Below, one piece after another: positions 1,192 through 19,927 of a stretch of DNA of 20,000 bases. The stretch is taken from the IMG/VR virus record IMGVR_UViG_3300042893_001183; one strand, 5' to 3'. Within the stretch, counting starts at the first letter, position 1, and each line of letters begins with the position of its first letter. Origin of the DNA: an uncultured virus (IMG/VR IMGVR_UViG_3300042893_001183). Its lineage: Duplodnaviria; Heunggongvirae; Uroviricota; Caudoviricetes. The notes below the pieces were generated by a model. The model was not told the DNA's origin, ran no database searches, and saw nothing but the letters and a program-made list of their open reading frames with translations. The translations under genes were made by a program, and so were the position numbers.

Positions 1192-2943
1192 ATGGATGCT
1201 AGTTTAGAATCAAAGGCAATGTCTCTCTTGGAGGCTTATGAAGGAGGGAATAACTACCTTATTGAGCTTAAAAGAAAGTCTCAAATAAATAGAAGATTTT
1301 ACCCCACAAGGAGTCAGTCTGAGTATATTATTAATAACCACGACAAACAACCAAAGGTTGCAAAGAAGTGGGTGATACTTGATGCATATTTCGCACAGAA
1401 ACTTGCTGATGATAAACTTATGACCGAAATTCCCGAAAAGGTTTGGGTAGAAAAACTATTAGCAGAAAAAGAAAAGGCGTTCCATATTTGGGGTAAGATA
1501 ACCGAATCAGAACAACTACATGATTTTTGGTTACCTAAAGCAGCAATTATTAAAGACAACACAGTTAAAAACGTTGTAATAAACTATGAAAAATATTCTC
1601 ATCGTCCTCCTCTTGAACATCAAAAAGAAGCTATCCAAAAATTGGTTGAAAATAAAAAATTCATACTTGCAGATGATATGGGTCTTGGAAAGACTACTTC
1701 TACTATTATAGCAGCATTAGAATCAGGTTCCAAGAAAGTATTAATTATTTGTCCAGCAACTTTAAAAATTAACTGGAAAAGAGAGATTGAAAATTATTCA
1801 GACAAACCAGTTTATATCGCTGAAGGTAAAAACTTTAGTACGGATGCTGACTTTGTAATAATAAACTATGATATTATAAAAAATTTCCATGATACAAAAA
1901 AGAAAGGCGAATCGCAAATTCTTGATGCCAATTTTGATTTGGTGGTCGTTGATGAAGCACACTATATCAAAAACGCTACAGCCCAAAGAACAAAATTAAT
2001 TAACGACCTCGTTAAGAAAGTAGACCGACTTTGGTTACTAACAGGAACACCAATGACATCAAGACCAATTGATTATTTCAATTTGTTAAGTTTAATTGAA
2101 TCTCCTGTGGCAAAAAACTGGATGGCTTACGCTATCAGATATTGTCAAGGATACCAATTCAATGTTGGTGGAAGAAAAGTGTGGAATGTTATGGGAGCTT
2201 CAAATCTTGAAGAATTAAGAGACAGGACCACAGGACTTACATTAAGAAGACTTAAAGAAAATGTTCTTGATTTACCAGATAAAATAATCACACCAGTATA
2301 TCTTAGATTAAAATCTAAAATGTATGAAGAAATAATGGGTGAGTATTATGATTGGTATGATAAAAATCCAGAAGAATCAAAATCACTTACAGTTCAATTT
2401 ACCAAACTAACTAAGATACGACAAGTTATTGCCGACGAGAAGATTGCTCAAACAATAGAACTTGCGGAAAACATTGTTGAACAGGGAAAGAAAGTAATCA
2501 TCTTTTGTAACTTTACTGACTCACTTAATAAGATATGTGAACACTTTGGTAAAACTGCGGTTAAGTTAGATGGGTCAATGTCAAAACCCGAAAGACAACA
2601 TAGCGTTGACGGATTCCAAGAAAATGATAAAGTTAAAGTATTTGTTGGTAATATTAAAGCGGCAGGTGTCGGACTTACTCTCACCGCTGGTGAGGCAGTT
2701 ATTATGAACGACTTATCATTCTTACCATCAGACCACGCCCAAGCAGAAGACCGAGCTTACAGATACGGTCAAAAAAACAATGTATTAGTTTACTACCCCA
2801 TATTCGAAAACACAATCGAAGGAATTATCTACGACATATTAAATAATAAAAAACAAGTGATTGCCACAGTTATGGGGGACAATCAAAATACGGCCGATGC
2901 TGCCGAAGAAATTTTGAATAGAATTAATGAAATGCGTCGTTAA
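1192..2943 (+). CDS. SNF2-family (SMARCAL1/HARP-like) helicase/ATPase
   Basis: 583 aa. Motif I ADDMGLGKT, Ia IICPATL..NW..EI, II DEAH, III LTGTP, V AAGVGLTL, VI QAEDRAYRYGQ. Confidence 0.93.
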   Translation: MDASLESKAMSLLEAYEGGNNYLIELKRKSQINRRFYPTRSQSEYIINNHDKQPKVAKKWVILDAYFAQKLADDKLMTEIPEKVWVEKLLAEKEKAFHIWGKITESEQLHDFWLPKAAIIKDNTVKNVVINYEKYSHRPPLEHQKEAIQKLVENKKFILADDMGLGKTTSTIIAALESGSKKVLIICPATLKINWKREIENYSDKPVYIAEGKNFSTDADFVIINYDIIKNFHDTKKKGESQILDANFDLVVVDEAHYIKNATAQRTKLINDLVKKVDRLWLLTGTPMTSRPIDYFNLLSLIESPVAKNWMAYAIRYCQGYQFNVGGRKVWNVMGASNLEELRDRTTGLTLRRLKENVLDLPDKIITPVYLRLKSKMYEEIMGEYYDWYDKNPEESKSLTVQFTKLTKIRQVIADEKIAQTIELAENIVEQGKKVIIFCNFTDSLNKICEHFGKTAVKLDGSMSKPERQHSVDGFQENDKVKVFVGNIKAAGVGLTLTAGEAVIMNDLSFLPSDHAQAEDRAYRYGQKNNVLVYYPIFENTIEGIIYDILNNKKQVIATVMGDNQNTADAAEEILNRINEMRR

Positions 2944-2985: not shown

Positions 2986-4524
2986 ATGAAAAAAATAAAA
3001 GAGAAAATCCAACAACTCGAAACACAAATACTTGAAAACCACATCACAAAAGAAAAAGAGTTGTTGATTAACGAAATGAAAAAAATAGGAATAGAAAAAT
3101 TACCCTATTCTTACTCAGCCCTGAAACAGTTTATTGACCCCGAGACAATGAACTTTCACTATAACAAACATTATAAGGGATATGTGGATAAATTGAATGA
3201 CGCTTTAAATAAAAAGAAATACGGGGATTTAGAGTTAGAACAAATAATCAAAACAATAAGTCGTTTTGATAAGACAATAAGAAACAACGCAGGAGGAGCA
3301 TTTAACCACGCATTGTTTTGGAATATGTTAACACCAACTCCAAAGAAATTAGAAGGAGAATTACTTAAAAAAATCACAAAACAATTCGGAAGTTTCACTG
3401 CGTTCAAGAAACAATTTGATACTGTTGCCAAAGATAGATTCGGTTCAGGGTGGGTATGGTTAGTCCTTACTGCCAAGAACACATTAAAGATTATGTCGAC
3501 TCCAAATCAAGACAATCCTTTAATGAATGTGATTGAAGGTGGTGGGTTTCCAATATTAGGGTTAGACTTATGGGAACACGCTTACTACTTGAAGTATAGA
3601 AACAAGCGAGACGAATATATTGTTAACTTTTGGAAAGTTGTAAACTGGGAATTTGTTTCCAAGTTATATGAAATGAAAACGGAAACTAAATTAGTAGAAT
3701 CCGTTAAGTTAGAAAAGTTGATAACAGAATCCAAAGAGGCAAAATTTTGTGACGCCAAGGAAGTTCAATTCTACAGAGAACTTATTAATAATTCAAACAT
3801 TAAGAGAATATACCAAGACGGAGTAACTAATGCTTTAAAAGAAGTGTTTAGTCAATTTTGGGTTGATAGTACAAATAAAGAAATGTCAGGGTTTTATGGA
3901 TTAGAGTCTAAAGAAGGAAGGTCTATTTTAAATAACCTAAACACAAACTTCAACACTTTTTGTTTATTAACCAAAGCAATTAATACTCAAATTGAAAAAA
4001 TAGGTAGACCTGAAAAGAAATTTGATTTTTCTAAAAAAGAAAATAGAACCATTAAAGAGATTAACAGATTAATGAATGCGTTGTATCATTTCAAAACAGA
4101 AATATTCACAAAAAACAACGAGGAGTTTATTAACATAATTAAAGTATTAAAAAAATTGTGGGATAGAGGACAAAAATCTGAAGATGATGTTTTAATTAAA
4201 ATTGAAAAATATTTTGGGGATTCCGCAAAACTTGAAAAGACTGGAGGACATGGTCAAAAAACCGACGCACTCCTTGGTGTTGATTTAACAATTACTTTAA
4301 ATGAAACAAGATATACCGCTCAGGTTAAACCATTTTCAAGAATAATAAACGAAGATGGAAAAATTACTGTAAAAGATACAGGAAATGTTAAACCGTACGA
4401 TGTTGATTGGTTGATATTTATTAATACAAAATCAAACGAGATTTTGATTTTTGAAAACAACCCGATTAAAAATCATAATCAATATGTGTTTAATGAGAGT
4501 TCATTAATTCATAAAATAGAATAG
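2986..4524 (+). CDS. sodA: Fe/Mn superoxide dismutase (Mn-type signatures) fused to a C-terminal PD-(D/E)xK-like domain
   Basis: aa ~36-229: LPYSYSAL..IDPETMNFHYNKHYKGY, NNAGGAFNHALFW, FGSGWVWL, PNQDNP, LDLWEHAYY. All four metal ligands are present, and GG and QD are Mn-type signatures. The ~280-aa C-terminal extension has G395xxxE399...GVD433...Q446VK448. Confidence 0.88.
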   Translation: MKKIKEKIQQLETQILENHITKEKELLINEMKKIGIEKLPYSYSALKQFIDPETMNFHYNKHYKGYVDKLNDALNKKKYGDLELEQIIKTISRFDKTIRNNAGGAFNHALFWNMLTPTPKKLEGELLKKITKQFGSFTAFKKQFDTVAKDRFGSGWVWLVLTAKNTLKIMSTPNQDNPLMNVIEGGGFPILGLDLWEHAYYLKYRNKRDEYIVNFWKVVNWEFVSKLYEMKTETKLVESVKLEKLITESKEAKFCDAKEVQFYRELINNSNIKRIYQDGVTNALKEVFSQFWVDSTNKEMSGFYGLESKEGRSILNNLNTNFNTFCLLTKAINTQIEKIGRPEKKFDFSKKENRTIKEINRLMNALYHFKTEIFTKNNEEFINIIKVLKKLWDRGQKSEDDVLIKIEKYFGDSAKLEKTGGHGQKTDALLGVDLTITLNETRYTAQVKPFSRIINEDGKITVKDTGNVKPYDVDWLIFINTKSNEILIFENNPIKNHNQYVFNESSLIHKIE

Positions 4525-8876: not shown

Positions 8877-9254
8877 TTAACAACAAGCAGTTTCTGAAAT
8901 AAAACTATCTTGGATATTAATATAAAGTTCCTCTCTGATTGGTAGAATTAAATTTCCTTCGTCGTTTTTAATTAAAAATTGACCTTGGTATCTACCAGGA
9001 GTATTTGTATCTCTTGCAGTAAATTTAAAATAAATGTAATACTCGGGGTCAGCACCTTCAGGTAAAATCAAATTTACAATTTCAGCAGGAGCAGAAACAA
9101 TTTTAGGAATTCCAGTTTCTACCTCAACCATAGTGAAAAATATAGTAGAAACTTCCAAGTCTTGCATAAGTTGCAAATAACCCGACCTTCCGTCTTTTAC
9201 AACCTGCATTTTTAATACAGGTAAAGTTGCATTCTTTTTTATATAAAATTCCAT
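8877..9254 (-). CDS. BppU N-terminal-like (baseplate upper / Ig-like) structural protein
   Basis: 125 aa. FYIKKNATLPVLKMQV...YFKFTARDTNTPGRYQGQFLI...LILPIREELYINI is the typical 'IK..DT.P.L...DT..PG.Y.GEF......P' pattern. TATTTAT lies 4 nt upstream. Confidence 0.6.
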   Translation of the reverse strand: MEFYIKKNATLPVLKMQVVKDGRSGYLQLMQDLEVSTIFFTMVEVETGIPKIVSAPAEIVNLILPEGADPEYYIYFKFTARDTNTPGRYQGQFLIKNDEGNLILPIREELYINIQDSFISETACC

Positions 9255-9270: not shown

Positions 9271-10944
9271 TTATGATTCTTTACGCAACTCTCTGTTATA
9301 ATGTTCGAATCTATCGTGTTCTGTTGGTGTCATAAGTAACAATCCAGGGTATAACTCATCTTTTTTAACTAACTGATACATATGACTCATCCATGTTTGT
9401 TCAAACGGATGTGCCCATGTTGTATCTAAAAACATTTTTTTGTTTCCTGGCCTACTAACAATCTGAGGCCAATTACAATAATAAACGTCACCAACCGCAT
9501 ATGGAACACCCTTGTGGGATAACACAGCATGGAATTCTGTTTTTGGTGCATTAGGGTCAAGTCCCATTTCTGGAAGTCTTGGTTTACCTGGCCAAAATTC
9601 ATCTCTTACATGTTGAGGCACATTATACCAAGCCCACTGAGTTCCATTGTCTCCATAAAACTCAGAATAATTCATCTTTAAAAAATCAAAATTTTCTTTC
9701 TTAATAATTTCTAAAGACTTTGTATATAAATTTGGAACGTATCTATTAAATCCATTTCTACAGGATGTCCCCTCATTTGGAAAGAAGAACATATCATCTT
9801 CGAAAAATAAATAATAATCTAAATCGGTTTTATCAAAATGTTCGGCAATCCATTGTCTACCACCACATATACCTAAATTATCTTTCTTAATATGTTCAAA
9901 TCCAAATTCTTCACAAATTGTTAAGTATTCTTCGGTAGTTGATAAGTCACTTGAATTATCTAACAAAAACTTTTTAGTTTTTAGTATGTAGTCCTTATCA
10001 TATGCCAACATAGAATCAATAAGAGTTCTAAATTGTTTTGGACTATTGAATGTAATAACATACAATCCAACTTTGTTTGGGTCCAAAGTATTACTAACTT
10101 TTTCTGTATTTTCACTTTTAACTTTGAGCTCATCGTTTTTTAAATTTTCAAAAAATGTTCCGATTAAACCATTTGATTCAATTTCAAAATAGTTAATCAT
10201 ATCCGAATGTTTATAAGTCATAATACTGAAAATTGATTCTTCAGTACCCATGTATCCATCTTCTAATGTAGATTTAAGTAACCCATAATAAATTCCATTG
10301 ATATCTCCTATTGTATGTTTTGGTCCACCAAAAAATCCTCCTCTAGAAACTTTGGTAACTTTGGCTCCAGCAAGAGCATTTAATTTAGGATAATTGAATC
10401 CATGTATTTCAGTCTCAGCACCATATGGAAAACTAACAAATGAAAATTTTGAAATATATTTTGATAAATTATTTAATACTTTATCATGAGTAAAGTATCC
10501 TGGATGAACTGTATTTGTTAAACCACCATCAATCCAAAACATATATTCTGAATCAAATTGGTCCATTATTTTAGCATCATGTAATAAAAAAACTTTAGAC
10601 ATAACTAATGGATTGTAATTATCTAATCTTGCTTGAGTAGATTCTTTTAACCAACCAACTTGATTATACCATTCTGGATTTGTTCTTATTTTTTGAATCA
10701 TTGGGAAAAACTCTGAATTAGTAAACCAACTTAATGGCCTTACAATAAACTGAGTGGTTTTAGAACTTCTTCTTTCAAAAACAAATTCTTTTAATTCTTC
10801 GTCTCCAAAGATTATTAAGTTTTCTTCAACCTCTAAAAGTTTTTCAAACTTATCTAAATAATGTTGATAAGGTCTTGACCATCCTTCGGTCAATTCACCT
10901 CTTCCGATATCCCAAATACCTGTTACTAATGTTATATTACTCAT
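9271..10944 (-). CDS. Two-domain glycosyltransferase: HtrL/YibB(WlaTC)-like N-domain plus GT-A (GT2-like) C-domain
   Basis: N-domain: ITLVTGIWDIGR, YNPLVMSKVFLL, MFWIDGG, GGFFGG, GTEESIF. C-domain: LYVITFN, LLDNSSD, NLGICGGRQW, LFFEDDM (DxD-like). Confidence 0.75.
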   Translation of the reverse strand: MSNITLVTGIWDIGRGELTEGWSRPYQHYLDKFEKLLEVEENLIIFGDEELKEFVFERRSSKTTQFIVRPLSWFTNSEFFPMIQKIRTNPEWYNQVGWLKESTQARLDNYNPLVMSKVFLLHDAKIMDQFDSEYMFWIDGGLTNTVHPGYFTHDKVLNNLSKYISKFSFVSFPYGAETEIHGFNYPKLNALAGAKVTKVSRGGFFGGPKHTIGDINGIYYGLLKSTLEDGYMGTEESIFSIMTYKHSDMINYFEIESNGLIGTFFENLKNDELKVKSENTEKVSNTLDPNKVGLYVITFNSPKQFRTLIDSMLAYDKDYILKTKKFLLDNSSDLSTTEEYLTICEEFGFEHIKKDNLGICGGRQWIAEHFDKTDLDYYLFFEDDMFFFPNEGTSCRNGFNRYVPNLYTKSLEIIKKENFDFLKMNYSEFYGDNGTQWAWYNVPQHVRDEFWPGKPRLPEMGLDPNAPKTEFHAVLSHKGVPYAVGDVYYCNWPQIVSRPGNKKMFLDTTWAHPFEQTWMSHMYQLVKKDELYPGLLLMTPTEHDRFEHYNRELRKES

Positions 10945-11818
10945 AAATTCTATTAAATTCTTCTAATATTCTATAGAAGCTTTTATTGTTTAAGAAGAGT
11001 TCTTCATCAACTCCTCTAGGCGCGTTGTCTCTACACCACCAAATATCGAAATGTTTTCTAACAAATAAATCTAAATGGTTAAAATACATTAAAGTCATAA
11101 CGTGTTCTTCATGTGGTATACCCTTATCTTCAGTTATTATTTTTTGAATATAGTCTTCAAATAAATTAACAACCTCATCCCACTTATCTCTGTGTCCACC
11201 AAACATACCACCAATCACATGAATACTTCTATCGTATTCAGTATACCATTTTCTATCTACAGTACCTGACCAATAGTTTCTATCATTTTCTTTACCTAAA
11301 ATTAAAAACTTATCACTCGTATCCTCAATAAGATTCTTTAAAAAATCATTATTAAACAAACTACTTTCATAATATCTTTGTTGGATATGTTCATTTGTTA
11401 GATATTTTAGAGGAATCAATCCACAATGAGATAATCCAGCATCAATCCAATAATAATAATCATAAGATTTATCTTCGTTCCACCACCAATGGAACTTACT
11501 GTATTGAACCTCAACACATCTGTCTCCATTTTTAGTTTCCTCAATATTCTTATATTGATTAATCAAATCTTTAAATTTGGTATTTCCAATATCAAAAACC
11601 TGAAACTTAAGTTTGTCTTTTGGAATTGAGTATTCGACATAAAAAAACTCTTCTAATGAAGGTAATTCTCTATCTGAAGTGTAACATAGGAAATCCGCGT
11701 CTGTCATCTTTAAAAGTGACAACAAACTATACCTATAATGTCCTCCTCTATTTGGTCTACCTCCGAATTCAGTACCATATAGGTCACTGTAAATTGATGT
11801 TATAAATTTAACTGACAT
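10937..11818 (-). CDS. HtrL/YibB(WlaTC)-like putative glycosyltransferase
   Basis: 293 aa. VQYSKF, YYWIDAGLSH, IGGMFGG, HEEHVM. Parallels the N-domain of the downstream gene, with an 8-nt overlap. Confidence 0.65.
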   Translation of the reverse strand: MSVKFITSIYSDLYGTEFGGRPNRGGHYRYSLLSLLKMTDADFLCYTSDRELPSLEEFFYVEYSIPKDKLKFQVFDIGNTKFKDLINQYKNIEETKNGDRCVEVQYSKFHWWWNEDKSYDYYYWIDAGLSHCGLIPLKYLTNEHIQQRYYESSLFNNDFLKNLIEDTSDKFLILGKENDRNYWSGTVDRKWYTEYDRSIHVIGGMFGGHRDKWDEVVNLFEDYIQKIITEDKGIPHEEHVMTLMYFNHLDLFVRKHFDIWWCRDNAPRGVDEELFLNNKSFYRILEEFNRIYE

Positions 11819-12557
11819 AATAAAATTCTTTATGTTCCCCGTTATCTTTCATTTCTTGAACTTTGTATTGGTCCATAAATTCGTTAGGGATTTTAGTTGG
11901 GCACCACCTATTCCAATTATAGGTTTGCATGTACCAATTACTATACATACCTTCAGATATGTTTGAGTAACCAGATTTCTGTGGAGCTATTGGTAAAATT
12001 GGACAGTAGCTTTGATGTTTTTGTACAATAAATTTAAAAGTATAATCATCTAAGGCATGGAAATAATCACCACTGGTAAATGCCGTCAAACCAATATCAA
12101 AGATATCATCGTAAATTGATTGGTCATAAATTATCATATTTGCAGCATATATACCACGAGCATTTTCACCTTCACTAGGTTCAGGTAAGTTAGTCATATC
12201 TAACAATAAATCATATTCCTTGCTAACAGAAATCTCTCTATTTTGAGTTGGAGCCAAATTAAACATCGCAAATTCTAAATTAGGATAACTATCTTCTATT
12301 TTTTGAAGTAAATCTTTTGCATATGGCATAAAACCACAATCATCCTCAATAATCATAACACGAGGATATTTTTGTTCTTTAGCAATCTTAATAATTTCAA
12401 AAGTTGATTTGGTGATGCCCATATAAGAATTAGTATCTATTGCGGGAAATCTTTGAAAATCCCATCCGAGATATTTCATTTCCTTTGTAATTTCTTCTAA
12501 CCTATCAGGTCGTCTATCTAAATTTACAATAAACTTAGGGATTTCATTAAATTTCAT
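11808..12557 (-). CDS. Glycosyltransferase family 25-like protein
   Basis: 249 aa. FIVNLDRRPDRLE...FQRFPAID and MIIEDDC are GT25 (Lex2B/LgtB-type) hallmarks. Confidence 0.8.
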   Translation of the reverse strand: MKFNEIPKFIVNLDRRPDRLEEITKEMKYLGWDFQRFPAIDTNSYMGITKSTFEIIKIAKEQKYPRVMIIEDDCGFMPYAKDLLQKIEDSYPNLEFAMFNLAPTQNREISVSKEYDLLLDMTNLPEPSEGENARGIYAANMIIYDQSIYDDIFDIGLTAFTSGDYFHALDDYTFKFIVQKHQSYCPILPIAPQKSGYSNISEGMYSNWYMQTYNWNRWCPTKIPNEFMDQYKVQEMKDNGEHKEFYYVS

Positions 12558-13822
12558 TAACTAATTACATTGTGATTTAATTGACCAGTTATCCTATCAC
12601 ACCATCCTTTTGATTCTGAGTGAGGCCAAACTACCCAATAAGAAGGTAATTCTGTTGTTGGGAATTCTCTCCAAACTTTACAATACTTATCAGGGTCTCT
12701 CATAAATCCTGCAATTTCATTCTTATCCGCATCTTTTCTATATAATGTTTCGTCAGAACCATTGTGGAATGCAACAACCCAAAAATCATAATCGGTTTCA
12801 GTAACTTGTGAATATCCAATATCAATACAATGTTTAAATATTGTTGAGAATGAATTTTTCCAATCTTCTTCAGTTTCAAAGTTATAAGGACTTGGTGGAT
12901 ATTGTTTGTCCAAACAATGTTTGTCTACTGCTCTTTTTTCAAATAATAAACCTGAATATTTTTCATAATCTTTTAAACTTCTAACAGTACCAAATCCGTA
13001 TTGTCCATCATGTCCTTGTTGAGTTTCACCATCCATACCAAATAACTTTCTATTTGTTAAGTGAGAGTGGGTATTTTTTTGACCCCAAGTTTTATCATCA
13101 TCCCATTGTTTAGTTCTACCTTTACGAGTATACTCGTGATAAACAACAGGAATGTGTGGGTGAAATAAATCATAACCCCATGTATAAGCTCTTGCTGCAA
13201 TTGAAATCTCTTCTCCGTGGAAATAATATTCAGGGTTGTGTTGAACTTCTTTTGAAAATTCTCCTAAAGTAAAACAGAAGTGAGCAGAATAGAATCTTGA
13301 TGTAACAGGTTTTTTCATTTCTCTCCAACCTGGAATTGTTTCAGGTAAGAAGAATACCGCACCTTCAGGAATGAATCTATCGAAGGCCATTCTCCAAGCA
13401 TCTTGCGCTCTACCTGCTGGTTCATTATCAGGGTCGAAGGATGGTACATATCCCGTAAGTAGAGGTTTCTTGTGCCCATCCTTTTGTAGACCCTTTATCA
13501 TCTTGATTAAGATATCATCCCAATCTTTGACAAATCTCATATGAGAGTCAATTTGTAGTGTATATGATTCTCCATCATAAAGTTGTTGTGTTAGGTTTCT
13601 TGCCCAACAAACACCTTTTGCATCTTGATAAGGAATGTCTAAGATTTTAAATCTTTTGTCATCTCTATATTCATCTAAGTTATCAAACCCATCTTCTTCT
13701 GCGAATTGTCTTGCAATTGAGAATACTAAATTTTTAGGTTTCTTGGCGTTTTCCAACATGTCTTTTATTGTTGGTATTAACTGTGGGTCTCTGTAGGACG
13801 CAATTTGAACGAATATTTTCAT
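12557..13822 (-). CDS. GT60 / Gnt1-like (PF11397 'GlcNAc') polypeptide or hydroxyproline N-acetylglucosaminyltransferase
   Basis: 421 aa. IFVQIASYRDPQL, AKGVCWAR, LQIDSHMRF..WD, YFHGEEI..AARAYTWGYDLFHP, VYHEY, YGFGTVRSL.DYE are signature motifs of Dictyostelium Gnt1/Gnt2 and trypanosomatid OGNT. There is an extra ~90-aa C-terminal domain. TAATG overlap with the next gene. Confidence 0.85.
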   Translation of the reverse strand: MKIFVQIASYRDPQLIPTIKDMLENAKKPKNLVFSIARQFAEEDGFDNLDEYRDDKRFKILDIPYQDAKGVCWARNLTQQLYDGESYTLQIDSHMRFVKDWDDILIKMIKGLQKDGHKKPLLTGYVPSFDPDNEPAGRAQDAWRMAFDRFIPEGAVFFLPETIPGWREMKKPVTSRFYSAHFCFTLGEFSKEVQHNPEYYFHGEEISIAARAYTWGYDLFHPHIPVVYHEYTRKGRTKQWDDDKTWGQKNTHSHLTNRKLFGMDGETQQGHDGQYGFGTVRSLKDYEKYSGLLFEKRAVDKHCLDKQYPPSPYNFETEEDWKNSFSTIFKHCIDIGYSQVTETDYDFWVVAFHNGSDETLYRKDADKNEIAGFMRDPDKYCKVWREFPTTELPSYWVVWPHSESKGWCDRITGQLNHNVIS

Positions 13823-13846
13823 TAATGTCTATTTTGTATTAAAAAT

Positions 13847-13878
13847 AAAAAACCCTCCACAAAAGTAGAGGGTTTTTT
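13847..13878 (-). terminator. Rho-independent terminator (A-tract/U-tract, potentially bidirectional)
   Basis: Minus strand AAAAAA-CCCTCTAC-TTTT-GTGGAGGG-TTTTTT, 23 nt downstream of the stop at 13902. Confidence 0.85.
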
Positions 13879-13901
13879 GAAATATATTATTTTTAATTTT
13901 A

Positions 13902-14513
13902 TTAACTATGTGTTGGCGTATTAGTTAATGTTGGTGTATTAGTTGGTGTTTCAGTATTTGTAGGAGTTTGAGTATTAGTTGGCGTTGGAGTGTTAGTAGG
14001 AGTCGGTGTATTAGTTGGTGTTTCGGTGTTAGTTGGAGTTTGAGTATTTGTTGGCGTTTGTGTATTAGTTGGTGTTTGTGTATTAGTTGGTGTTTGTGTA
14101 TTAGTTGGTGTTGGAGTGTTTGTAGGAGTTTGTGTGTTAGTTTGGGTTTGTGTTGGAGTTTCGGTGTTAGTTGGAGTTGGTGTTGAAGTTTCAGTGTTAG
14201 TTGGAGTTGGTGTTGGAGTTGATGTGTTTGATGCAGTTATACTTACTGTTGGTGTATTAGTCGGAGTTTGAGTATTTGTTGGTGTCGGAGTCGCAGTCTC
14301 ACTAATTGGAGGGAAAGACCCCTGATTAATCAAAGAAACTGAACTAGTATAAACAGGAGAAATTGTATACGTCCCGTTAATTACCCAAATATTCTTTGTT
14401 TGATTTGGATTTAATTCAACTTGATACTCCCAAAGAGAGTCATCACATCTTCTATAATTAAAGTTCACAATTGTGGAACCTGTATTTGTTAAGGTATATT
14501 TGCTACATGCCAT
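13902..14513 (-). CDS. Putative virion-surface protein: small Cys-containing N-domain plus mucin-like Thr-Pro tail
   Basis: 203 aa. ~70-aa beta domain (C.KY.LTN...Y.RCDD...LNP) followed by 129 aa of TPTNT(Q/E) repeats running to the C-terminus. Confidence 0.7.
13911..14297 (-). repeat. Coding Thr-Pro repeat (18-nt/12-nt units; [16 protein letters not shown])
   Basis: Includes three exact copies of GTTTGTGTATTAGTTGGT at 14056-14109. Other units differ mainly at synonymous positions. Confidence 0.9.
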
Positions 14514-14532
14514 CTTAAATGTTATTTATTTA

Positions 14533-14539
14533 ATAAATA
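14533..14539 (-). promoter_or_regulatory. TATTTAT motif (candidate late promoter)
   Basis: gTATTTATtaaataaataacatttaagATG, 19 nt before 14513. Confidence 0.5.
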
Positions 14540-14593
14540 CTACGATTTTCTCTAATTTTATAAAGTAATCTTATTTTATTTCTTAAATAAGAT

Positions 14594-14656
14594 TTATGTT
14601 GTTGTAGTGGTTTGAGTATTAGTTGGAGTTTTCGTATTTATTGAGGTTGTTGTTGG
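14594..14656 (-). pseudogene. Orphan Thr/Pro-repeat coding remnant
   Basis: Translates as PTTTSINTKTPTNTQTTTTT*. Preceded by in-frame TAA TAA and no start codon, in the intergenic gap. Confidence 0.5.
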
Positions 14657-14691
14657 TTATTATAAAATAATTACAATCTGTTGAATACGTA

Positions 14692-15771
14692 TTAACTCAA
14701 TAATCCCGAAAGATAATCAGAAGTTAAATCAGTCCAAGTACCTGCGGATGTTACACTATTCCATGTCCACGCAGAAAATCCATCAACTTGAACATAAGAT
14801 TCATAACCATAGTCTGTGTTTATAAAAATACCGTTACACAAATATACTGGATTTTCACTAACATATCCTAAAGCAGATAATGTTCCTCCTGTAACTGCAG
14901 CTGGTAAATAATCATATAAAAATTGGTTAGCATTATTTCTAATAACTCTTGTAGCATGTACCATACTCTCACCATATGTCATTGCCGATAAAGTTGCTCT
15001 TTCAGGCCATAACATATCTTGAAGATAATAAAATTCATAATCTCCAGTTCCTGACCAAGATGGAAAGATTGGTTGTGTTGCACCTGATGCAATAACTTGA
15101 GCGATTGCTCCAGCAACTGCACCGCAAGTTGTTGACAAAGTAGTATTACTAACATTACCTTTACGATATATGTAACCTACATCACCATCAAGAGTAATTC
15201 CAATATGTGGTGTACTTGAAATAAATAATGTTCCTCCAGAAATTGTTGAACCTGTTGTTATATGACTTGCCCACGCTCCCAAACCAACTTGACCAACAAA
15301 TGGATAACCAGCTAAACCTCCTGACATAAATGGCCCAAGAAGAGAACTCATCGATGTAGGAAATTGACCAATATTACTAACTCCTTGTACTACTAGAGCA
15401 TCAACATCATCAGAACAAATTCCTTCAGCATATACAATATCTTCAGGTGCAAACCCTAATGATTGCATAAATCCTGTAGTATATGAACCCCAAAAACTAG
15501 ATAAAACAGAACCTGTAAATGTTAAATTAACAGTTTCAGTATACGCCGATTGAGCTGGTGCTGGTTCAGGTATTGTTATGGTATATTCTGTTTGATATTC
15601 AGTGATGAATAAATCGTACTCTCCATATGGATATTCTGAATAATAATTAAATGGAACTATTTGGGTACCTAAACTAATTGTTCCTCCAGTTACTGGCCTA
15701 AAAACAGTAGGATTTGATGTTTTTCCTATTAAACTGTTACTTGAGATTCTAACTCCTTCTATTGTTGACAT
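14692..15771 (-). CDS. LCIB/LCIC-family (theta-class) carbonic anhydrase-like domain fused to an N-terminal virion module
   Basis: 359 aa. GIC119SD121D, GPF..GGLAGYPFVG..G..AWASH, PH189IGIT.DG..G.IYR.G, TTC216GA and GIFINTD are the LCIB_C_CA motif set with a Cys/His/Cys Zn triad. aa 1-70 are paralogous to the N-terminus of 15808..16191. Confidence 0.8.
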   Translation of the reverse strand: MSTIEGVRISSNSLIGKTSNPTVFRPVTGGTISLGTQIVPFNYYSEYPYGEYDLFITEYQTEYTITIPEPAPAQSAYTETVNLTFTGSVLSSFWGSYTTGFMQSLGFAPEDIVYAEGICSDDVDALVVQGVSNIGQFPTSMSSLLGPFMSGGLAGYPFVGQVGLGAWASHITTGSTISGGTLFISSTPHIGITLDGDVGYIYRKGNVSNTTLSTTCGAVAGAIAQVIASGATQPIFPSWSGTGDYEFYYLQDMLWPERATLSAMTYGESMVHATRVIRNNANQFLYDYLPAAVTGGTLSALGYVSENPVYLCNGIFINTDYGYESYVQVDGFSAWTWNSVTSAGTWTDLTSDYLSGLLS

Positions 15772-15783
15772 ATTTTTTTATTT

Positions 15784-15790
15784 ATAAATA
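15784..15790 (-). promoter_or_regulatory. TATTTAT motif (candidate late promoter)
   Basis: aaTATTTATaaataaaaaaatATG, 12 nt before 15771. Confidence 0.5.
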
Positions 15791-15807
15791 TTATGATTTA
15801 TTGAAAT

Positions 15808-16191
15808 TTAATTTTGAATTATGGCGTATAATAAATCACCATTAGGTATGTCCAATGCCGACAAATTATCCAAAGGAATTGTTTCATACAATAATTCACC
15901 ATTAGGTATGTCTAATGCCGACAAATTATCCAAAGGAATTATGTCATATAATAATTCACCTGTAGGAATTAATTCGTATGTTGGTGATGGACAAGGTACA
16001 TTAATTGTATAAGTATAATTATATATTGCAACATAGCAATCATAAGTTCCATACCAATAATCGGTAATATAAGTAAATGGAAATGTTTGTTCACCTAAAC
16101 TAATTGTACTACCAGTACAAGAATGAAAGGTAACATTTGCGGTTAATCCGCTTAAATTATCACTAAATATTGATACACCACAATCTGCCAT
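15808..16191 (-). CDS. Putative virion protein: shared N-module plus 10/20-aa IPxxxLxY repeats
   Basis: 127 aa with no Lys or Arg. N-terminus GV.I.S..L.G.T.N..F...TG.TISLG.Q..PF.Y...Y.YG.YD. C-terminus IPLDNLSALDIPNG(E/D)LLY twice. Confidence 0.65.
   Translation of the reverse strand: MADCGVSIFSDNLSGLTANVTFHSCTGSTISLGEQTFPFTYITDYWYGTYDCYVAIYNYTYTINVPCPSPTYELIPTGELLYDIIPLDNLSALDIPNGELLYETIPLDNLSALDIPNGDLLYAIIQN
15827..15960. repeat. 60-bp coding tandem duplication (~2.2 copies)
   Basis: 15841-15880 and 15901-15940 are identical except for one base (attaggtatgtc[c/t]aatgccgacaaattatccaaaggaatt). Confidence 0.9.
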
Positions 16192-16195
16192 GTTA

Positions 16196-16202
16196 ATAAA
16201 TA
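16196..16202 (-). promoter_or_regulatory. TATTTAT motif (candidate late promoter)
   Basis: gagTATTTATtaacATG, 4 nt before 16191. Confidence 0.6.
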
Positions 16203-16224
16203 CTCAAAAATTTTATTTTATCTT

Positions 16225-16794
16225 TTAACATACCCCAACATTAATAATTTGATTACCGCTAAGTTGAATAAATCTACCTCCGTTTGAGATTGTAAAATTG
16301 GCATCTATTGGTGGAATAGTTAAAGATTGGTTACCATATACGTAATCTCCAACTTCCAAAATTTCAAAAGGTTTTGAAGTGTAGATTGTAACGTTTTTAG
16401 GATTTGCTGTCATACTAACAGATTGACAAACATTTTGATACCATCCACCTGTTCTTAGATTATACATATAAACTGTTGTTGGTGTAACCGTTGGTGTTGT
16501 TGTGGGTGTTGGAGTTGGAGAAGTTGAGGTTGGAGTAGGTGTTACCGAACTTTGAGTTGGTGTTGATGTAATAGTTGGAGTTGGTGTTGTCGAGGGACAT
16601 AATCCTACTAAAGATATTGTAAGAGGAGCTCCATAACTTTCAACAATTAAATCCTTAGCACAAACATATTGTACTTCTAACGGGTTAATTGGTGAAACAC
16701 TAATTATATCCGTACAACCAGTCCATCTATAATATCCTTCTTCGACATTATTGTAGTTGGTTATAATAAAATAGTTACAGTCTGTTGTATTCAT
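16225..16794 (-). CDS. Putative virion-surface protein: two small Cys domains joined by a Thr-Pro linker
   Basis: 189 aa. N-domain C.YF.ITN...YRWTGCTD...INP resembles the 203-aa protein. A 41-aa PSTTPTPT...TPTT linker is at 16474-16596. The C-domain ends in GVC. Confidence 0.65.
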   Translation of the reverse strand: MNTTDCNYFIITNYNNVEEGYYRWTGCTDIISVSPINPLEVQYVCAKDLIVESYGAPLTISLVGLCPSTTPTPTITSTPTQSSVTPTPTSTSPTPTPTTTPTVTPTTVYMYNLRTGGWYQNVCQSVSMTANPKNVTIYTSKPFEILEVGDYVYGNQSLTIPPIDANFTISNGGRFIQLSGNQIINVGVC

Positions 16795-16795
16795 T

Positions 16796-17308
16796 TTAAC
16801 TTACTTTAATATATCCGTAATTAACCGTAAAACCTGATACCGTATTGTTTTGAATACCGAATACAAATGTATTTGTTGATGTACCTACAGATGGTGAAGC
16901 AGTAGATATTGAACCCGCGGTTCCTATAATCTGTGCAGGTATAGTTGTAAACAATATTGGACTACCCCCACCAGTATAATTCCAGGCATACTGAACACCA
17001 ATTACTGGTACATTAGTATTACTAACACTTACTGTAGCATTATAAACTATTATACCATTTGGTATATTTCCAAGAACCCATAAGTTATACACATTATTAA
17101 TATCAACTGTAAAACTGTAGTTATTAGTCCCTGGAGTCACCGTCCAACTACCTGAGACTGGTGACACCACATTTGTTGAATATCCACTAAATAGTGTTTC
17201 TTTAGCCACCTTAAATGATTCCGTATTACCACTATTGTTCATAACAATAAACGACCCATTAGTATTTCCCGTAAATGTCGGTAATTGACTTATTTTTGTA
17301 TTTGCCAT
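16796..17308 (-). CDS. Putative fibre/virion structural protein with N-terminal KISQLP motif
   Basis: 170 aa. MANTKISQLP...IVM.....SFKV...TL N-terminus is typical of phage fibre attachment segments. The remainder is beta-rich in S/T/G/N. Confidence 0.55.
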   Translation of the reverse strand: MANTKISQLPTFTGNTNGSFIVMNNSGNTESFKVAKETLFSGYSTNVVSPVSGSWTVTPGTNNYSFTVDINNVYNLWVLGNIPNGIIVYNATVSVSNTNVPVIGVQYAWNYTGGGSPILFTTIPAQIIGTAGSISTASPSVGTSTNTFVFGIQNNTVSGFTVNYGYIKVS

Positions 17309-17323
17309 TTTATTCTATTTTTT

Positions 17324-19927
17324 TTATATAATATCTATTTCAATATTATCGTTATTTTCTGCCGTAGCAATTGAATCATCTTCAAATAATAAGAAGTATA
17401 GTTGGGTTGATGTTGGGGTTGGAGTTGTTGTTGGTGTATTAGTCGGTGTAGATGTTGTAGTTGGTGTTGGTGAACTAGTCGGTGTAGGTGTTGGAGTTGG
17501 GGTTTCTGTATTAGTTGGAGTTTGTGTTGGAGTTTCACTTGGTGTATTTGTAGGGGTTTCAGTTGGAGTTGGTGTTTGAGTTTCTGTTGTAGTTGGTGTT
17601 ACTCCAATAGTACCACTTGGAGTATTTGTTGGAGTAACACTTGGAGTATTTGTTGGAGTCTCTGTATTAGTAGGAGTTTGAGTTGGTGTATTTGTAGGTG
17701 TTTCAGACGGAGTATTAGTAGGAGTTTCCGTATTAGTAGGTGTGTTGGTAGGGGTTGGCGTTGGAGTTTCGGTATTTGTAGGAGTTACAGTATTAGTGGT
17801 GGTAACTGTTGGAGTCGGAGTTGGCGTTGGAGTCGATGTTTCAGTATTGGTTGGAGTTACTGTGTTGGTAGGAGTACTAGTTGGAGTCTCAGTGTTAGTA
17901 GGTGTTGGTGTTTCTGTTGCAGTATTTGTTGGAGTTTGAGTTGGAGTTTGAGTTGGGGTTGATGTTGGGCATGGATAGAAAGAAGAAAACAAATCATTAC
18001 ATGGTACCGTCAAATATCCTAAATCAGTACAAGGTACTGAGATATATAATAAATCGTTATTAGGTATAAAGATTCTACAATTAAGACAATTAGGGTCTAA
18101 TAGGTTATATCTGTTTTTTAATAACTTAAAGTTGTGTCTAATTTGAGATGCATTCAACGGTTCAGTATACATTCTAAATGCACTAACATCACCAATCATA
18201 CTACCACCAAAAATTTCTTCTAATCTTATTTGAGTTGTAAGACCTGAGTATTCAGTATGTTCTAAGTCATAATCAGTTAAACATTCAGGGTCTTGTTGAT
18301 ATGTAATACCACTTAACTCTGCGGGACACCCTGCAGAGAATGTTAAGTTGTCGTGAAGACCTTGAGTACCTCCTCCAACTGAAATATTATACCCAACCCC
18401 AATTTGTTTTTCTTTTTCAACATTAAGAAGTCTTGGGATTATTTCTTCAAAATTTTCAGCCACCAAAAATAATTTACCGTTAACATAAAATTTAAGAGTA
18501 CCTAATCTATATTTTTGTTCTTCGGTCCACATATCAGTAAATGTTACAACCTCTGTTGAAGGTGGAATATATCCTGGGTCATGTGTTATTGGTGGTTCAA
18601 CTAATGTTACACTTCTATTCTCTAATGTTGCAAAATATACATCATCAACTAAAAGACCAAGACCTCCCTTTTCATATAAGTCACAGGTATCAAACCATTC
18701 TCTTCTTTGGAATACGGCGTCTATTTGAACCCAATGTTCAACGTTAGGGTAAGTTGTTCCACTACAATCATCAAAGATTCCTCTTGTAGAACACCATTCA
18801 GTTACAGAAGTTCCTGTGTGATAAGTCAATCCTGTAAGACAAGTTCCACTGTATTCACACCCTCCTGTTATTCTATATGTCTTAACACATAGTCTTGGAC
18901 TACCAGTATCACCACTTAATCTTAAAGACAATGCATTTGAAACCCCATCATATAATGGGTCTTTCTCAGCGTATTTGGCTGTTGTTTGGCAATCACAAGG
19001 GCAACCACAAGTGCAATGAGTTATCGTACCTCCCGATGGTTGATACACCTGCAGACATTCAGATGAAGTATTTGCGGTACTTGCACAACCACAAGTATGC
19101 ATACAAGTTAACCCTGAAGTCACTCTTGTGTACCCTGTATCTTGTTTTGGTTCACCATCAGCATAATGATAGAATTTGTTTTCGGCTCTCGCCCCCATGT
19201 AGAAAAAAGTTCCCTTATTATCTGGATACCTTGCGTTAAGTCCGACAGAAGTATCTCCTGTCCATCTGTATCTTAACATAAATTCAGCTGTCCACCCTAA
19301 CGATACTCTTTGAGGGAACACCTGATAGTCGTATCCTGGTAACTTATAAAAACCTTGGAAGAATCCTCCGTTTAATCTGGCAAAATAACCCACAGGATTA
19401 CCATCCGTGGCGTAATACATATTATAGGAGTAAGAGTCATCATTCCACAATCTATTTTCTGAAGTTGTGAAACCAGTGATAGGGTGCATTTTCATTCTCC
19501 TATCATATTTGTATCTACTAAATCTGTCTGACTCTGTTTCGTAAAGACCAGTTGTTATTTCAATAGTCTCACCTGACATGTTTTTAACAAGTCCATTGTC
19601 AATACCTGTCAAACCAACATCACATAACTCAGTAACAATTGGACAAAAATTAGGGTCGGTATCAGTTGGATTCCAATAGTTTTCAGATACAATAGTATCA
19701 TCATCAAATGTGCATGAATTTGTTTGACATTTTGTAGTTCCTGAACTATTAAAGTCAAATTTGAACGGCATTCTATTACCATTATCCTCACCAATTAGTA
19801 ATGGTGAAAAAATAACTTCTTGGTCGTAGTCTTTCTCATCTGACGCGAGACAAATGTCCGTGACTTCGTTGACAGGTTTAATACCCCATCGTCTAAAATT
19901 ATATTGATTAATATTTTGATATGCCAT
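17324..19927 (-). CDS. Large virion protein: Cys-rich LamG/ConA-like lectin domain plus long mucin-like Thr-Pro stalk
   Basis: 867 aa. [21 protein letters not shown] and [28 protein letters not shown] are LamG/Laminin_G_3 motifs. Has [13 protein letters not shown] inserts, a 188-aa TP repeat and an acidic C-terminal LLFEDD..A.AENN.I motif. Confidence 0.7.
17405..17968 (-). repeat. Coding Thr-Pro repeat (188 codons; [14 protein letters not shown] units)
   Basis: Degenerate GTTGG-rich repeats on the + strand, conserved at the protein level with heavy synonymous variation. Confidence 0.9.

Follow-up and report, generated by a model that had tools for sequence, protein, structure and literature searches.

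An LCIB-type carbonic anhydrase domain on a reused N-terminal module in an uncultured lake phage: a plausible virion-displayed protein

The DNA considered here is a stretch of 20,000 nucleotides (the window) from the IMG/VR record IMGVR_UViG_3300042893_001183, and its subject is a minus-strand gene at 14692-15771 for a 359-residue protein in which an N-terminal module of about 70 residues, here called the handle, is joined to a carbonic anhydrase (CA) domain of the LCIB/theta type. The phage LCIB protein is a real and unusual form of a known enzyme family: the domain has the LCIB fold, its catalytic residues are invariant among relatives, the handle is reused on other proteins of the same phages, and the LCIB domain recurs in further late or structural contexts in related viruses. 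A location on the virus particle is the best single reading of the protein and, on balance, the probable one, because the domain is repeatedly mounted on exchangeable handles or inside late proteins, and because its composition is virion-like and its gene shares a promoter class with the tail sheath and tube. The virion display proposed in an initial annotation of this DNA is plausible, and the full model, in which attachment to the virion is combined with catalysis, is a realistic possibility that falls short of being probable. The window belongs to a record of 59,480 bp (14% complete), which is compared below with a related record, G001, of 272 kb (91% complete) and with related viral loci that carry L-numbers.

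The LCIB Domain and Its Active Site

The gene and the parts of its product are as follows.

14692-15771, minus strand: gene for the protein of handle plus LCIB/theta-CA, 359 aa (open reading frame list; PF18599 match; stop codon at 14692-14694)
15556-15771, minus strand: handle, residues 1-72, predicted six-strand Ig/FN3-like beta-sandwich (strands E5-9 to E61-67 in the AlphaFold2 (AF2) model, predicted local distance difference test score (pLDDT) about 77-95)
15547-15570, minus strand: Pro-rich linker IPEPAPAQ, residues 68-75, joining handle to enzyme (from the sequence)
14719-15543, minus strand: LCIB/beta-CA-fold domain, residues 77-351 (VIA-align and Foldseek on the AF2 model)
15409-15417, minus strand: C119-S-D121 motif, putative zinc ligand Cys and catalytic Asp (C119 codon at 15415-15417; aligned to CSDEV of 6kfs and PtLCIB4)
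15205-15207, minus strand: codon of H189 in the motif PHIG, putative His ligand of zinc (PHVG of 6kfs and PtLCIB4 stands at the aligned position)
15124-15126, minus strand: codon of C216, putative second zinc ligand Cys, motif TCG (invariant C216-G217 column)

The open reading frame (ORF) begins with ATG and lies exactly where the initial annotation had placed it, with no strand named; the plus strand across 14692-15771 is full of stops. In the linker, residues P68, P70, and Q74 are invariant or nearly so in an alignment of 23 phage homologues. The assignment to the LCIB/theta family, first made from motifs, is borne out by the Pfam profile LCIB_C_CA (PF18599), which scores 101.2 bits against a gathering cut-off of 25 (E 6.9e-29) in a match that spans residues 102-332 and positions 15-219 of the 223 in the profile. 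Only this one of the 18 proteins of the window matches PF18599; among the related phages the profile is also matched by five other architectures and by a sixth ORF cut at a contig end (E 1.6e-12 to 2.9e-33). When the PDB was searched by sequence, it returned chains of the LCIB family only, namely 6kfs_A (E 2.6e-14), PtLCIB4 (5b5y_A, 1.1e-7), CrLCIC (2e-3), and CrLCIB (0.04).

The structural comparisons were made with an AF2 model for which 84 diverse family sequences served as input (pLDDT 92.9, predicted template modeling score 0.86); an earlier model from 23 phage-only sequences, with a pLDDT of 69.8 and values below 50 for residues 118-159 in the active-site region, was discarded. With Foldseek, the closest structures are 6kfs (E 8e-16, TM 0.84) and PtLCIB4 5b5y_A (E 1e-14, TM 0.87), both at a probability of 1.00, followed by CrLCIC/LCIB (E 7e-9 and 2e-8; PDB 5k5w and 5b5x) and then by classical beta-CAs. 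VIA-align, which is independent of Foldseek, superposes model residues 77-351 on PtLCIB4 5b5y_A with a Z score of 26.8 and a root mean square deviation of 2.3 Å, 236 of 237 residues being matched, and gives Z 21.3 for CrLCIB (5k5w_B) and Z 8-12.6 for classical beta-CAs. The structural comparison with LCIB and PtLCIB that the annotation had proposed thus agrees with the profile search, and by every test applied, of sequence and of model, residues from about 77 to 351 form a member of the LCIB family. The list of structural matches also includes a CS2 hydrolase (3ten_A, Z 7.5) and a carbonyl sulfide (COS) hydrolase (3vrk_A, Z 7.0), which raises the alternative that the same fold serves another chemistry, the hydrolysis of COS, CS2, a cyanate-like molecule, or an ester instead of CO2 hydration. 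These hydrolases score far below PtLCIB4 and also below ordinary beta-CAs (Z 10-12.6), the signature in the sequence of the phage domain belongs to the LCIB family, and we regard this alternative as very improbable.

The LCIB-type motifs reported by the initial annotation, with C119, H189, and C216 as the zinc triad and D121 beside it, are all present. It should be noted that C216 is placed by the family column, whereas the pairwise PDB alignment sets it 3-4 residues out of register with CCG. From the 2.3 Å superposition on PtLCIB4, C119, H189, and C216 are predicted to lie together at one metal site. Two further residues, H170 and R203, would from their spacing be the counterparts of His162 and Arg194 of CrLCIB; His162/161 and Arg194/193 are named as important for algal LCIB in the accessible part of the review concerned (PMC5876011). 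All six residues (C119, D121, H170, H189, R203, and C216) are invariant in three sets, namely the 23 phage homologues, the 84 diverse family sequences, and the distinct full-length LCIB ORFs from viral contigs in all architectures (58 of 58), with identities in this last set down to about 40%. Because the catalytic residues that are not zinc ligands are fully conserved across very different fusion contexts, this pattern fits an active site that is in use.

The Handle

The handle was described by the initial annotation as a module of about 70 residues shared with a neighboring gene, and this holds: 33 of 67 residues (49%, E 5e-16) are identical between it and the N terminus of a 127-aa protein encoded next to the LCIB gene. 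The 59.5-kb record has no copy beyond these two. G001 has five, in its LCIB protein, in proteins of 803, 744, and 1040 aa, and as a 70-aa stand-alone form; two of the three large proteins are leucine-rich repeat (LRR) proteins of the DUF285/BspA type (E about 1e-240). In every match found, the handle is N-terminal; in the record and in G001 a single N-terminal domain is present on several proteins with unrelated C-terminal parts. The 803-, 744-, 1040-, and 70-aa handle genes of G001 sit between the terminase and the T4-type portal genes. Judged by the portal protein, the two nearest isolates are Microcystis phage Mel-JY01, at 39.5% identity, and Flavobacterium phage immuto, at 37.7%; in both of them the terminase and portal genes are adjacent.

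In the AF2 model, the handle resembles small beta-sandwiches (VIA-align Z 5-6.2, for example 3fcg_B), and its structural neighbors include an usher middle domain, several type-9 secretion system (T9SS) C-terminal domains, and FN3 modules; scores of this size are at a generic level and indicate a common arrangement only. The ESM Atlas gave no usable match to the handle.

LCIB Proteins in Related Phages

In a large protein collection, 365 homologues were found at E<=1e-3, and the best 120 of the 365 all match PF18599, have lengths of 298-363 aa (about 358), and carry the handle. In the 20 next-nearest representatives (P0121-P0140), the handle is present in P0121 only, the rest having different N-terminal extensions. 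The enzyme domain alone, compared with 1.84 billion cluster representatives, gave 522 matches, 19 of them below 1e-30. A scan of IMG/VR gave 152 relatives, from which 80 loci were kept; these contain 82 LCIB ORFs in at least six architectures, tandem pairs included. The GTDB species genomes yielded one relative among 69 pattern-matching stretches, at 28% identity, in a Spirochaetales metagenome-assembled genome. A search of BFVD gave no match at E<=0.001, the best CA being a Pandoravirus protein at E 0.058, and the literature, as far as its text was accessible, yielded no account of a virus with an LCIB-type domain.

A phylogeny of 196 LCIB domains (FastTree, unrooted) has one split, with SH-like support of 84, that holds 81 of the 82 viral-contig or near-representative sequences and one other. 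The initial annotation had called for a phylogeny against bacterial homologues; in the present tree, most rows of which carry no taxon labels, the viral sequences have a branch of their own. That annotation also spoke of an unusual kind of auxiliary gene. An auxiliary metabolic gene is recognized by a close cellular homologue, a sign of recent capture from a host, and a stand-alone enzyme; here there are a single cellular relative at 28% identity, a separate viral branch, and extra N- or C-terminal parts on every phage form of LCIB. The phage domains are also poor in Lys, with medians of 2.1% (n = 120) and 1.9% (n = 20) in the phage groups compared with 4.9% in 115 more distant representatives.

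Several of the other architectures and loci bear on the location of the protein. In the close relatives L069 and L071, an LCIB domain is inserted into an orthologue of a 502-aa protein of the 59.5-kb record; Pfam recognizes the insert (E 1e-32), and the flanks are 77% identical to the 502-aa protein over aa 1-139 and 83% identical where aa 397-776 align with its residues 121-500. The 502-aa protein has 3.2% Lys, and its gene has a TATTTAT motif (see below) of its own; in the ESM Atlas it yields only a lead to CBM96 (score 0.95, the family being present in 14% of that cluster). In L096, which is of another lineage, the first 61 residues of the LCIB protein are unrelated to the handle of about 70 residues and share 87% identity with the start of a non-LCIB protein that occupies the corresponding position in L102, both genes lying 1-3 genes upstream of the tail sheath and tube (phrog_23, E 2e-71 and 2e-76). 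In L109, L117, and L120, the LCIB gene follows the major head protein gene by 2-4 predicted ORFs and precedes a "virion structural protein" gene by 1-3 ORFs. Altogether, structural neighbors of the LCIB gene were seen in five of the nine loci scanned.

Two side observations belong here. The gene next to that of the L102 protein with the 61-residue N terminus encodes YadA-head repeats. For proteins of 511 and 697 aa, Pfam and PDB sequence searches gave nothing meaningful, and the 511-aa protein had no match in a tblastn search of 50,697 phage records.

Composition, Promoter Motif, and Gene Block

The LCIB gene lies in a block of six minus-strand genes (13902-19927), whose other features are listed here.

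17324-19927, minus strand: gene for an 867-aa protein, preceded by TATTTAT (upstream part of the block)
16796-17308, minus strand: gene for a 170-aa protein (upstream part of the block)
16225-16794, minus strand: gene for a 189-aa protein (upstream part of the block)
15808-16191, minus strand: gene for the 127-aa neighbor, with the handle (aa 1-71) followed by three ELLYxxIPLDNLSALDIPNG-like repeats of about 20 aa; 0 Lys (ORF list)
15784-15790, minus strand: TATTTAT, located 19 nt upstream of the LCIB ATG, candidate promoter element of late/structural genes (motif scan)
13902-14513, minus strand: gene for a 203-aa protein with a small N-terminal domain ahead of a long tail rich in Pro/Thr; preceded by a TATTTAT of its own and last in the block
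13847-13878, minus strand: intrinsic-terminator-like hairpin of 14 pairs plus a T-run, closing the block (the only such site in 13700-17400)

The 359-aa protein has a pI of about 4.1 and, as the initial annotation had counted, only two Lys residues (0.6%), the genome median being 8.1%. All proteins of the block have 0-2.5% Lys (1.6-2.5% in the 867-, 170-, and 189-aa proteins, two of which have Pro/Thr-rich linkers), and the next-lowest values in the 59.5-kb record are those of the sheath (2.9%), the tube (3.1%), and the 502-aa protein (3.2%). Structural gene for that of the 127-aa neighbor and virion block for the block, the terms used by the initial annotation, are putative designations.

The TATTTAT motif that had been noticed before the gene is at 15790-15784 on the minus strand. 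The 59.5-kb record has 31 copies on both strands, 14 of which are at most 60 nt upstream of a start on the same strand, a zone that covers 3.2% of positions. It precedes the genes for the tail sheath, the tail tube, an adaptor-like 374-aa protein, and the 867-, 127-, 203-, 125-, and 502-aa proteins, and it is kept upstream of the LCIB gene in 12 of the 32 related loci examined. The motif lies 11-43 nt before 14 start codons, often with G or A in front, and sites in the window include 16196-16202 and 14533-14539; several copies end only 4-5 nt before an ATG, and there the leader would be very short or missing. The T4 late promoter TATAAATA was considered as the element in use here and was set aside, since the 59.5-kb record has 10 copies of it, of which only 3 are upstream of genes; TATAAATA-like sequences are present, as judged by eye, upstream of LCIB genes in a clade at 46% identity.

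Other features of the region are recorded as observations. The block proteins are rich in Ser, Thr, Asn, Gly, and Tyr, three of them have long Pro/Thr-rich linkers of the PTPTNT type, which may be glycosylation targets, and a divergent promoter region and the terminator flank the block, directly after which come five glycosyltransferase-type genes (9271-13822). PHROGs gave no family for the LCIB protein or for most genes of the block. A DLLY...P..DL motif just before the Pro/Thr-rich region of the 867-aa protein resembles the repeats of the 127-aa protein, and the L004 orthologue of 733 aa shows a 59% match to the 127-aa protein across 73 aa. An out-of-frame remnant at 14598-14640 (minus strand), in the DNA that separates the LCIB stop from the 203-aa gene, reads TKTPTNTQTTTTT* in one frame, like the Pro/Thr linkers of the neighbors, and may have been left by recombination through linker repeats; in one RNA-library contig, from a related strain, 12 nt are inserted at 14615. 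The gene for a 125-aa protein (8877-9254, minus strand), which has its own TATTTAT, directly precedes the LCIB gene in relatives of the L006/L007 type, and in L007 (9249-9935) its homologue is lengthened to 228 aa by an extension that resembles the 127-aa neighbor.

Source Phage and Host

The DNA represents part of the genome of an uncultured jumbo myophage from lakes, which is T4-like and AT-rich, and the stretch recurs in lake-water metagenomes of many studies. The 59.5-kb record encodes tail sheath, tail tube, PhoH, dUTPase, a family-B polymerase (PolB), an SNF2 helicase, a superoxide dismutase (SOD) fusion, and many glycosyltransferases, and G001 encodes a T4-type portal, terminase, gp23 capsid protein, prohead protease, gp25, gp32, ribonucleotide reductase, Hsp70/DnaJ/ClpB, and a sigma factor. 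In G001 (L128, L134, L135, L136, and L140) there are also PAS-domain and SPFH/Band-7 proteins beside the ClpB-like, DnaJ, Hsp70, and sigma-70-type proteins, together with a class-II aminoacyl-tRNA-synthetase-like protein and a SprB-repeat protein of 1190 aa. The SNF2-family helicase (1192-2943, plus strand) has 583 aa here and 421-601 aa in other relatives; that of L006 (16783-19662) has 959 aa, with two separate alignment blocks that suggest an inserted element. The SOD fusion (2986-4524, plus strand) has 512 aa, with a complete Fe/Mn SOD, matched by Sod_Fe_N (E 6.5e-22) and Sod_Fe_C (E 5.3e-40), at aa 36-226 followed by about 285 aa without a family, and it is kept in relatives at 33-73% identity, the L007-type form having only 294 aa.

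With regard to the host, G001 encodes the SprB-repeat protein and several DUF285 LRR proteins, and Shine-Dalgarno-like motifs precede only 2 of 63 genes, which we take to be hints of a Bacteroidota host rather than cyanobacteria. These indirect clues point to a heterotrophic member of the Bacteroidota rather than a phototroph. The 39.5% portal match to the Microcystis phage prompted the idea of a cyanophage whose cytosolic CA collapses the cyanobacterial CO2-concentrating mechanism; it was ranked low in view of the same clues and of the absence of psbA and psbD from all five related records, the 91%-complete one included.

In all of the lake metatranscriptome libraries (four of four), contigs span parts of the LCIB gene, some without mismatch, and the gene is probably expressed during infection; such contigs show neither strand nor ends nor expression level, and DNA carry-over is possible, so they do not amount to proof of transcription. 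One RNA-library contig of 151 nt (run X18, no mismatch; 15628-15778) ends 6 nt past TATTTAT and 7 nt short of the ATG, which is compatible with a transcript start at 15778, a single end proving nothing.

Location and Function of the Protein

The favored model is that of a two-part late protein, an Ig/FN3-like handle connected through a short Pro-rich linker to a complete zinc enzyme domain of the LCIB/theta type. The handle would dock the protein onto the virus particle in the manner of the N-terminal anchors of tail-fibre and tailspike proteins, leaving the LCIB domain as an exposed payload. Zinc would be bound through C119, H189, and C216, and with D121, H170, and R203 the domain would interconvert CO2 and bicarbonate (with H+) in the layer that surrounds the host cell while the phage adsorbs. 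That the protein docks on the virion, that it binds zinc, that it is catalytically active, and that the phage gains from it are predictions of this model. With respect to location, six indirect lines agree: the promoter motif, the composition, the reuse of the handle, the insertion of the domain into another late protein, the second exchange of an N-terminal part (L096 and L102), and the capsid neighborhood.

A number of observations weigh against the model. The gene for the SOD fusion is also preceded by TATTTAT, and therefore the motif marks a timing class and not virion proteins as such. For the block, Pfam and PHROGs yield no structural family and only Pro/Thr-rich low-complexity matches, and the search of 50,697 phage records by tblastn gave no match for the 170-aa ORF, for the N-terminal part of the 867-aa protein, or for the LCIB protein, so that no cultured relative in that set carries the gene. 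The 502-aa protein that is host to the inserted domain likewise obtained no family from Pfam and PDB sequence searches or from the same phage records. Neither of the two nearest isolates has the LCIB gene, and a handle profile found no match in them (0 of 2), an empty result that shows little. In four of the nine loci scanned, the neighbors of the LCIB gene are non-structural: in L101 (969-5900) two NodU-type carbamoyltransferases (phrog_1601, E 1e-124 and 7e-119) come directly before it, and PolB follows; tandem pairs in L107 and L116 lie amid genes of nucleotide metabolism (dCMP deaminase, HNH, RNA ligase); and in L098 the neighbors are without recognized function. In genomes of the G001 type, the LCIB gene adjoins PolB and glycosyltransferases. 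Finally, membership in the family is no guarantee of activity, and recombinant LCIB homologues with the beta-CA fold had no CA activity according to the available part of a review (PMC5876011). As to the details of these loci, the tandem genes, present in L107 (5602-7668), L108, and L116 (5608-7732), encode proteins of 401-406 aa and 285-299 aa, and one of the L101 carbamoyltransferases is fused into a 1090-aa protein; a link of bicarbonate supply to carbamoylation is possible in L101.

The contexts of L101, of L107 and L116, and of the G001-type genomes speak for an intracellular auxiliary enzyme that interconverts CO2 and bicarbonate in the cytoplasm of the infected cell, where it could feed carbamoyl-phosphate synthesis for nucleotides, supply carbamoylated sugars, or buffer pH, the handle then serving some intracellular interaction. 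The RNA-library contigs, subject to the same possibility of DNA carry-over, are in keeping with this, as is the proposal, in the accessible portion of a preprint (10.64898/2026.01.21.700432), that viral CAs from the classes alpha, beta, and gamma are auxiliary genes. However, the Lys content of 0.6% and the pI of about 4.1 resemble those of the sheath, tube, and fibre-like proteins, while the enzymes of the same genome are Lys-rich (median 8.1%); the handle is common to LRR proteins encoded between terminase and portal; in relatives, LCIB is inserted in or fused to late non-enzyme proteins near sheath or capsid genes; and the sheath and tube genes have the same promoter motif. On this evidence we consider a cytoplasmic enzyme unlikely.

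The second alternative accepts attachment to the virion and denies catalysis: the LCIB fold would be a zinc-stabilized scaffold that binds a ligand on the host surface, as an adhesin or receptor-binding domain. All the evidence for association with the virion applies equally to it, and the other payloads borne by the same handle in relatives, the DUF285 LRRs, are of binding type. The inactivity in vitro of recombinant algal LCIB homologues (PMC5876011) would also fit, and there is a parallel in vaccinia D8, an adhesion molecule of the virion envelope (PMC4256255), both as far as the accessible texts go. The invariance described above, in 58 of 58 viral ORFs down to about 40% identity and in 84 family members, includes D121, H170, and R203 as strictly as the zinc ligands. 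This weakens the scaffold, because a mere scaffold would be expected to lose its active-site residues, as D8 has lost its zinc site; the domesticated or exapted scaffold that the initial annotation entertained is accordingly not favored, and we judge it improbable.

For a catalytically active protein on the particle, a local shift of pH or bicarbonate at the cell surface is a guess at the benefit, and the sensing of CO2 or pH of active hosts is pure speculation. In the widest form of the model, which we advance as doubtful, widespread AT-rich freshwater phages, some of them jumbo myophages, would carry an active CA as an exchangeable virion payload on the kinds of handle that also bear their LRR adhesins and alter CO2, bicarbonate, and pH at the host surface.

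LCIB/theta-type CAs are treated as specialized parts of algal CO2-concentrating mechanisms. The present results place an LCIB domain with every catalytic residue in lake phages, where it is common and is shuffled among handles, linkers, and late proteins in the manner of a tail-fibre payload. If it is active on the particle, virion-borne enzymology would gain a new category and viruses a new route to inorganic-carbon chemistry, and it would be the first phage virion enzyme aimed at inorganic carbon and not at glycans, peptidoglycan, or lipids; if inactive, it would join poxvirus D8 as a second and independent instance of a CA fold taken up for use on the virion surface. In both cases, it offers biochemistry a compact, acidic, and very Lys-poor LCIB variant, as well as a defined module of about 70 aa whose docking partner can be sought.

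Comparison with Known Systems

The nearest characterized relatives of the phage domain are PtLCIB4 and PtLCIB3 of Phaeodactylum tricornutum and the 6kfs protein, which belong to the same Pfam family and share the fold of the whole domain and the positions of the Cys-His-Cys and Asp residues. The phage domain is only 21-24% identical to PtLCIB4 and 6kfs and lies on a separate branch; the phage protein has an N-terminal Ig-like handle where algal LCIB has a transit peptide, and it is very Lys-poor and acidic. The LCIB and LCIC proteins of Chlamydomonas (5k5w and 5b5x) are of the same family and fold (Z 21.3). According to the part of the source available, algae and certain bacteria have LCIB proteins, and the algal LCIB and LCIC form LCIB-LCIC complexes, are associated with the pyrenoid, and act in the CO2-concentrating mechanism (PMC5876011). 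This context has no counterpart in the phage, psbA/psbD being found in none of the five related records.

The CA genes from the classes alpha, beta, and gamma on aquatic viral contigs, which have conserved active sites and were proposed as auxiliary genes (10.64898/2026.01.21.700432), differ in kind: they are stand-alone and are read as genes of host metabolism, and in the text that is accessible none is of the LCIB type and none is fused to a structural module. The phage LCIB protein differs also from vaccinia D8, which binds chondroitin sulfate as an adhesion molecule of the virion envelope, again from the accessible text (PMC4256255). The phage protein has the beta-CA/LCIB fold and keeps all catalytic residues. 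The D8 domain, from the envelope of an animal virus, has an alpha-CA-like fold without the zinc ligands.

Phage receptor-binding proteins are modular, with a conserved N-terminal anchor and exchangeable C-terminal domains that are enzymatic or binding, and the payloads of tail fibres and tailspikes act on glycans, peptidoglycan, or lipids or bind receptors; we know of no description of a CA as such a payload. The handle is likewise reused with unrelated C-terminal parts, as is the 61-residue N terminus of L096 and L102, and the handle-LRR genes of G001, like the LCIB genes in five of the nine loci scanned, lie in or near structural clusters; in the other four loci the neighbors are non-structural.

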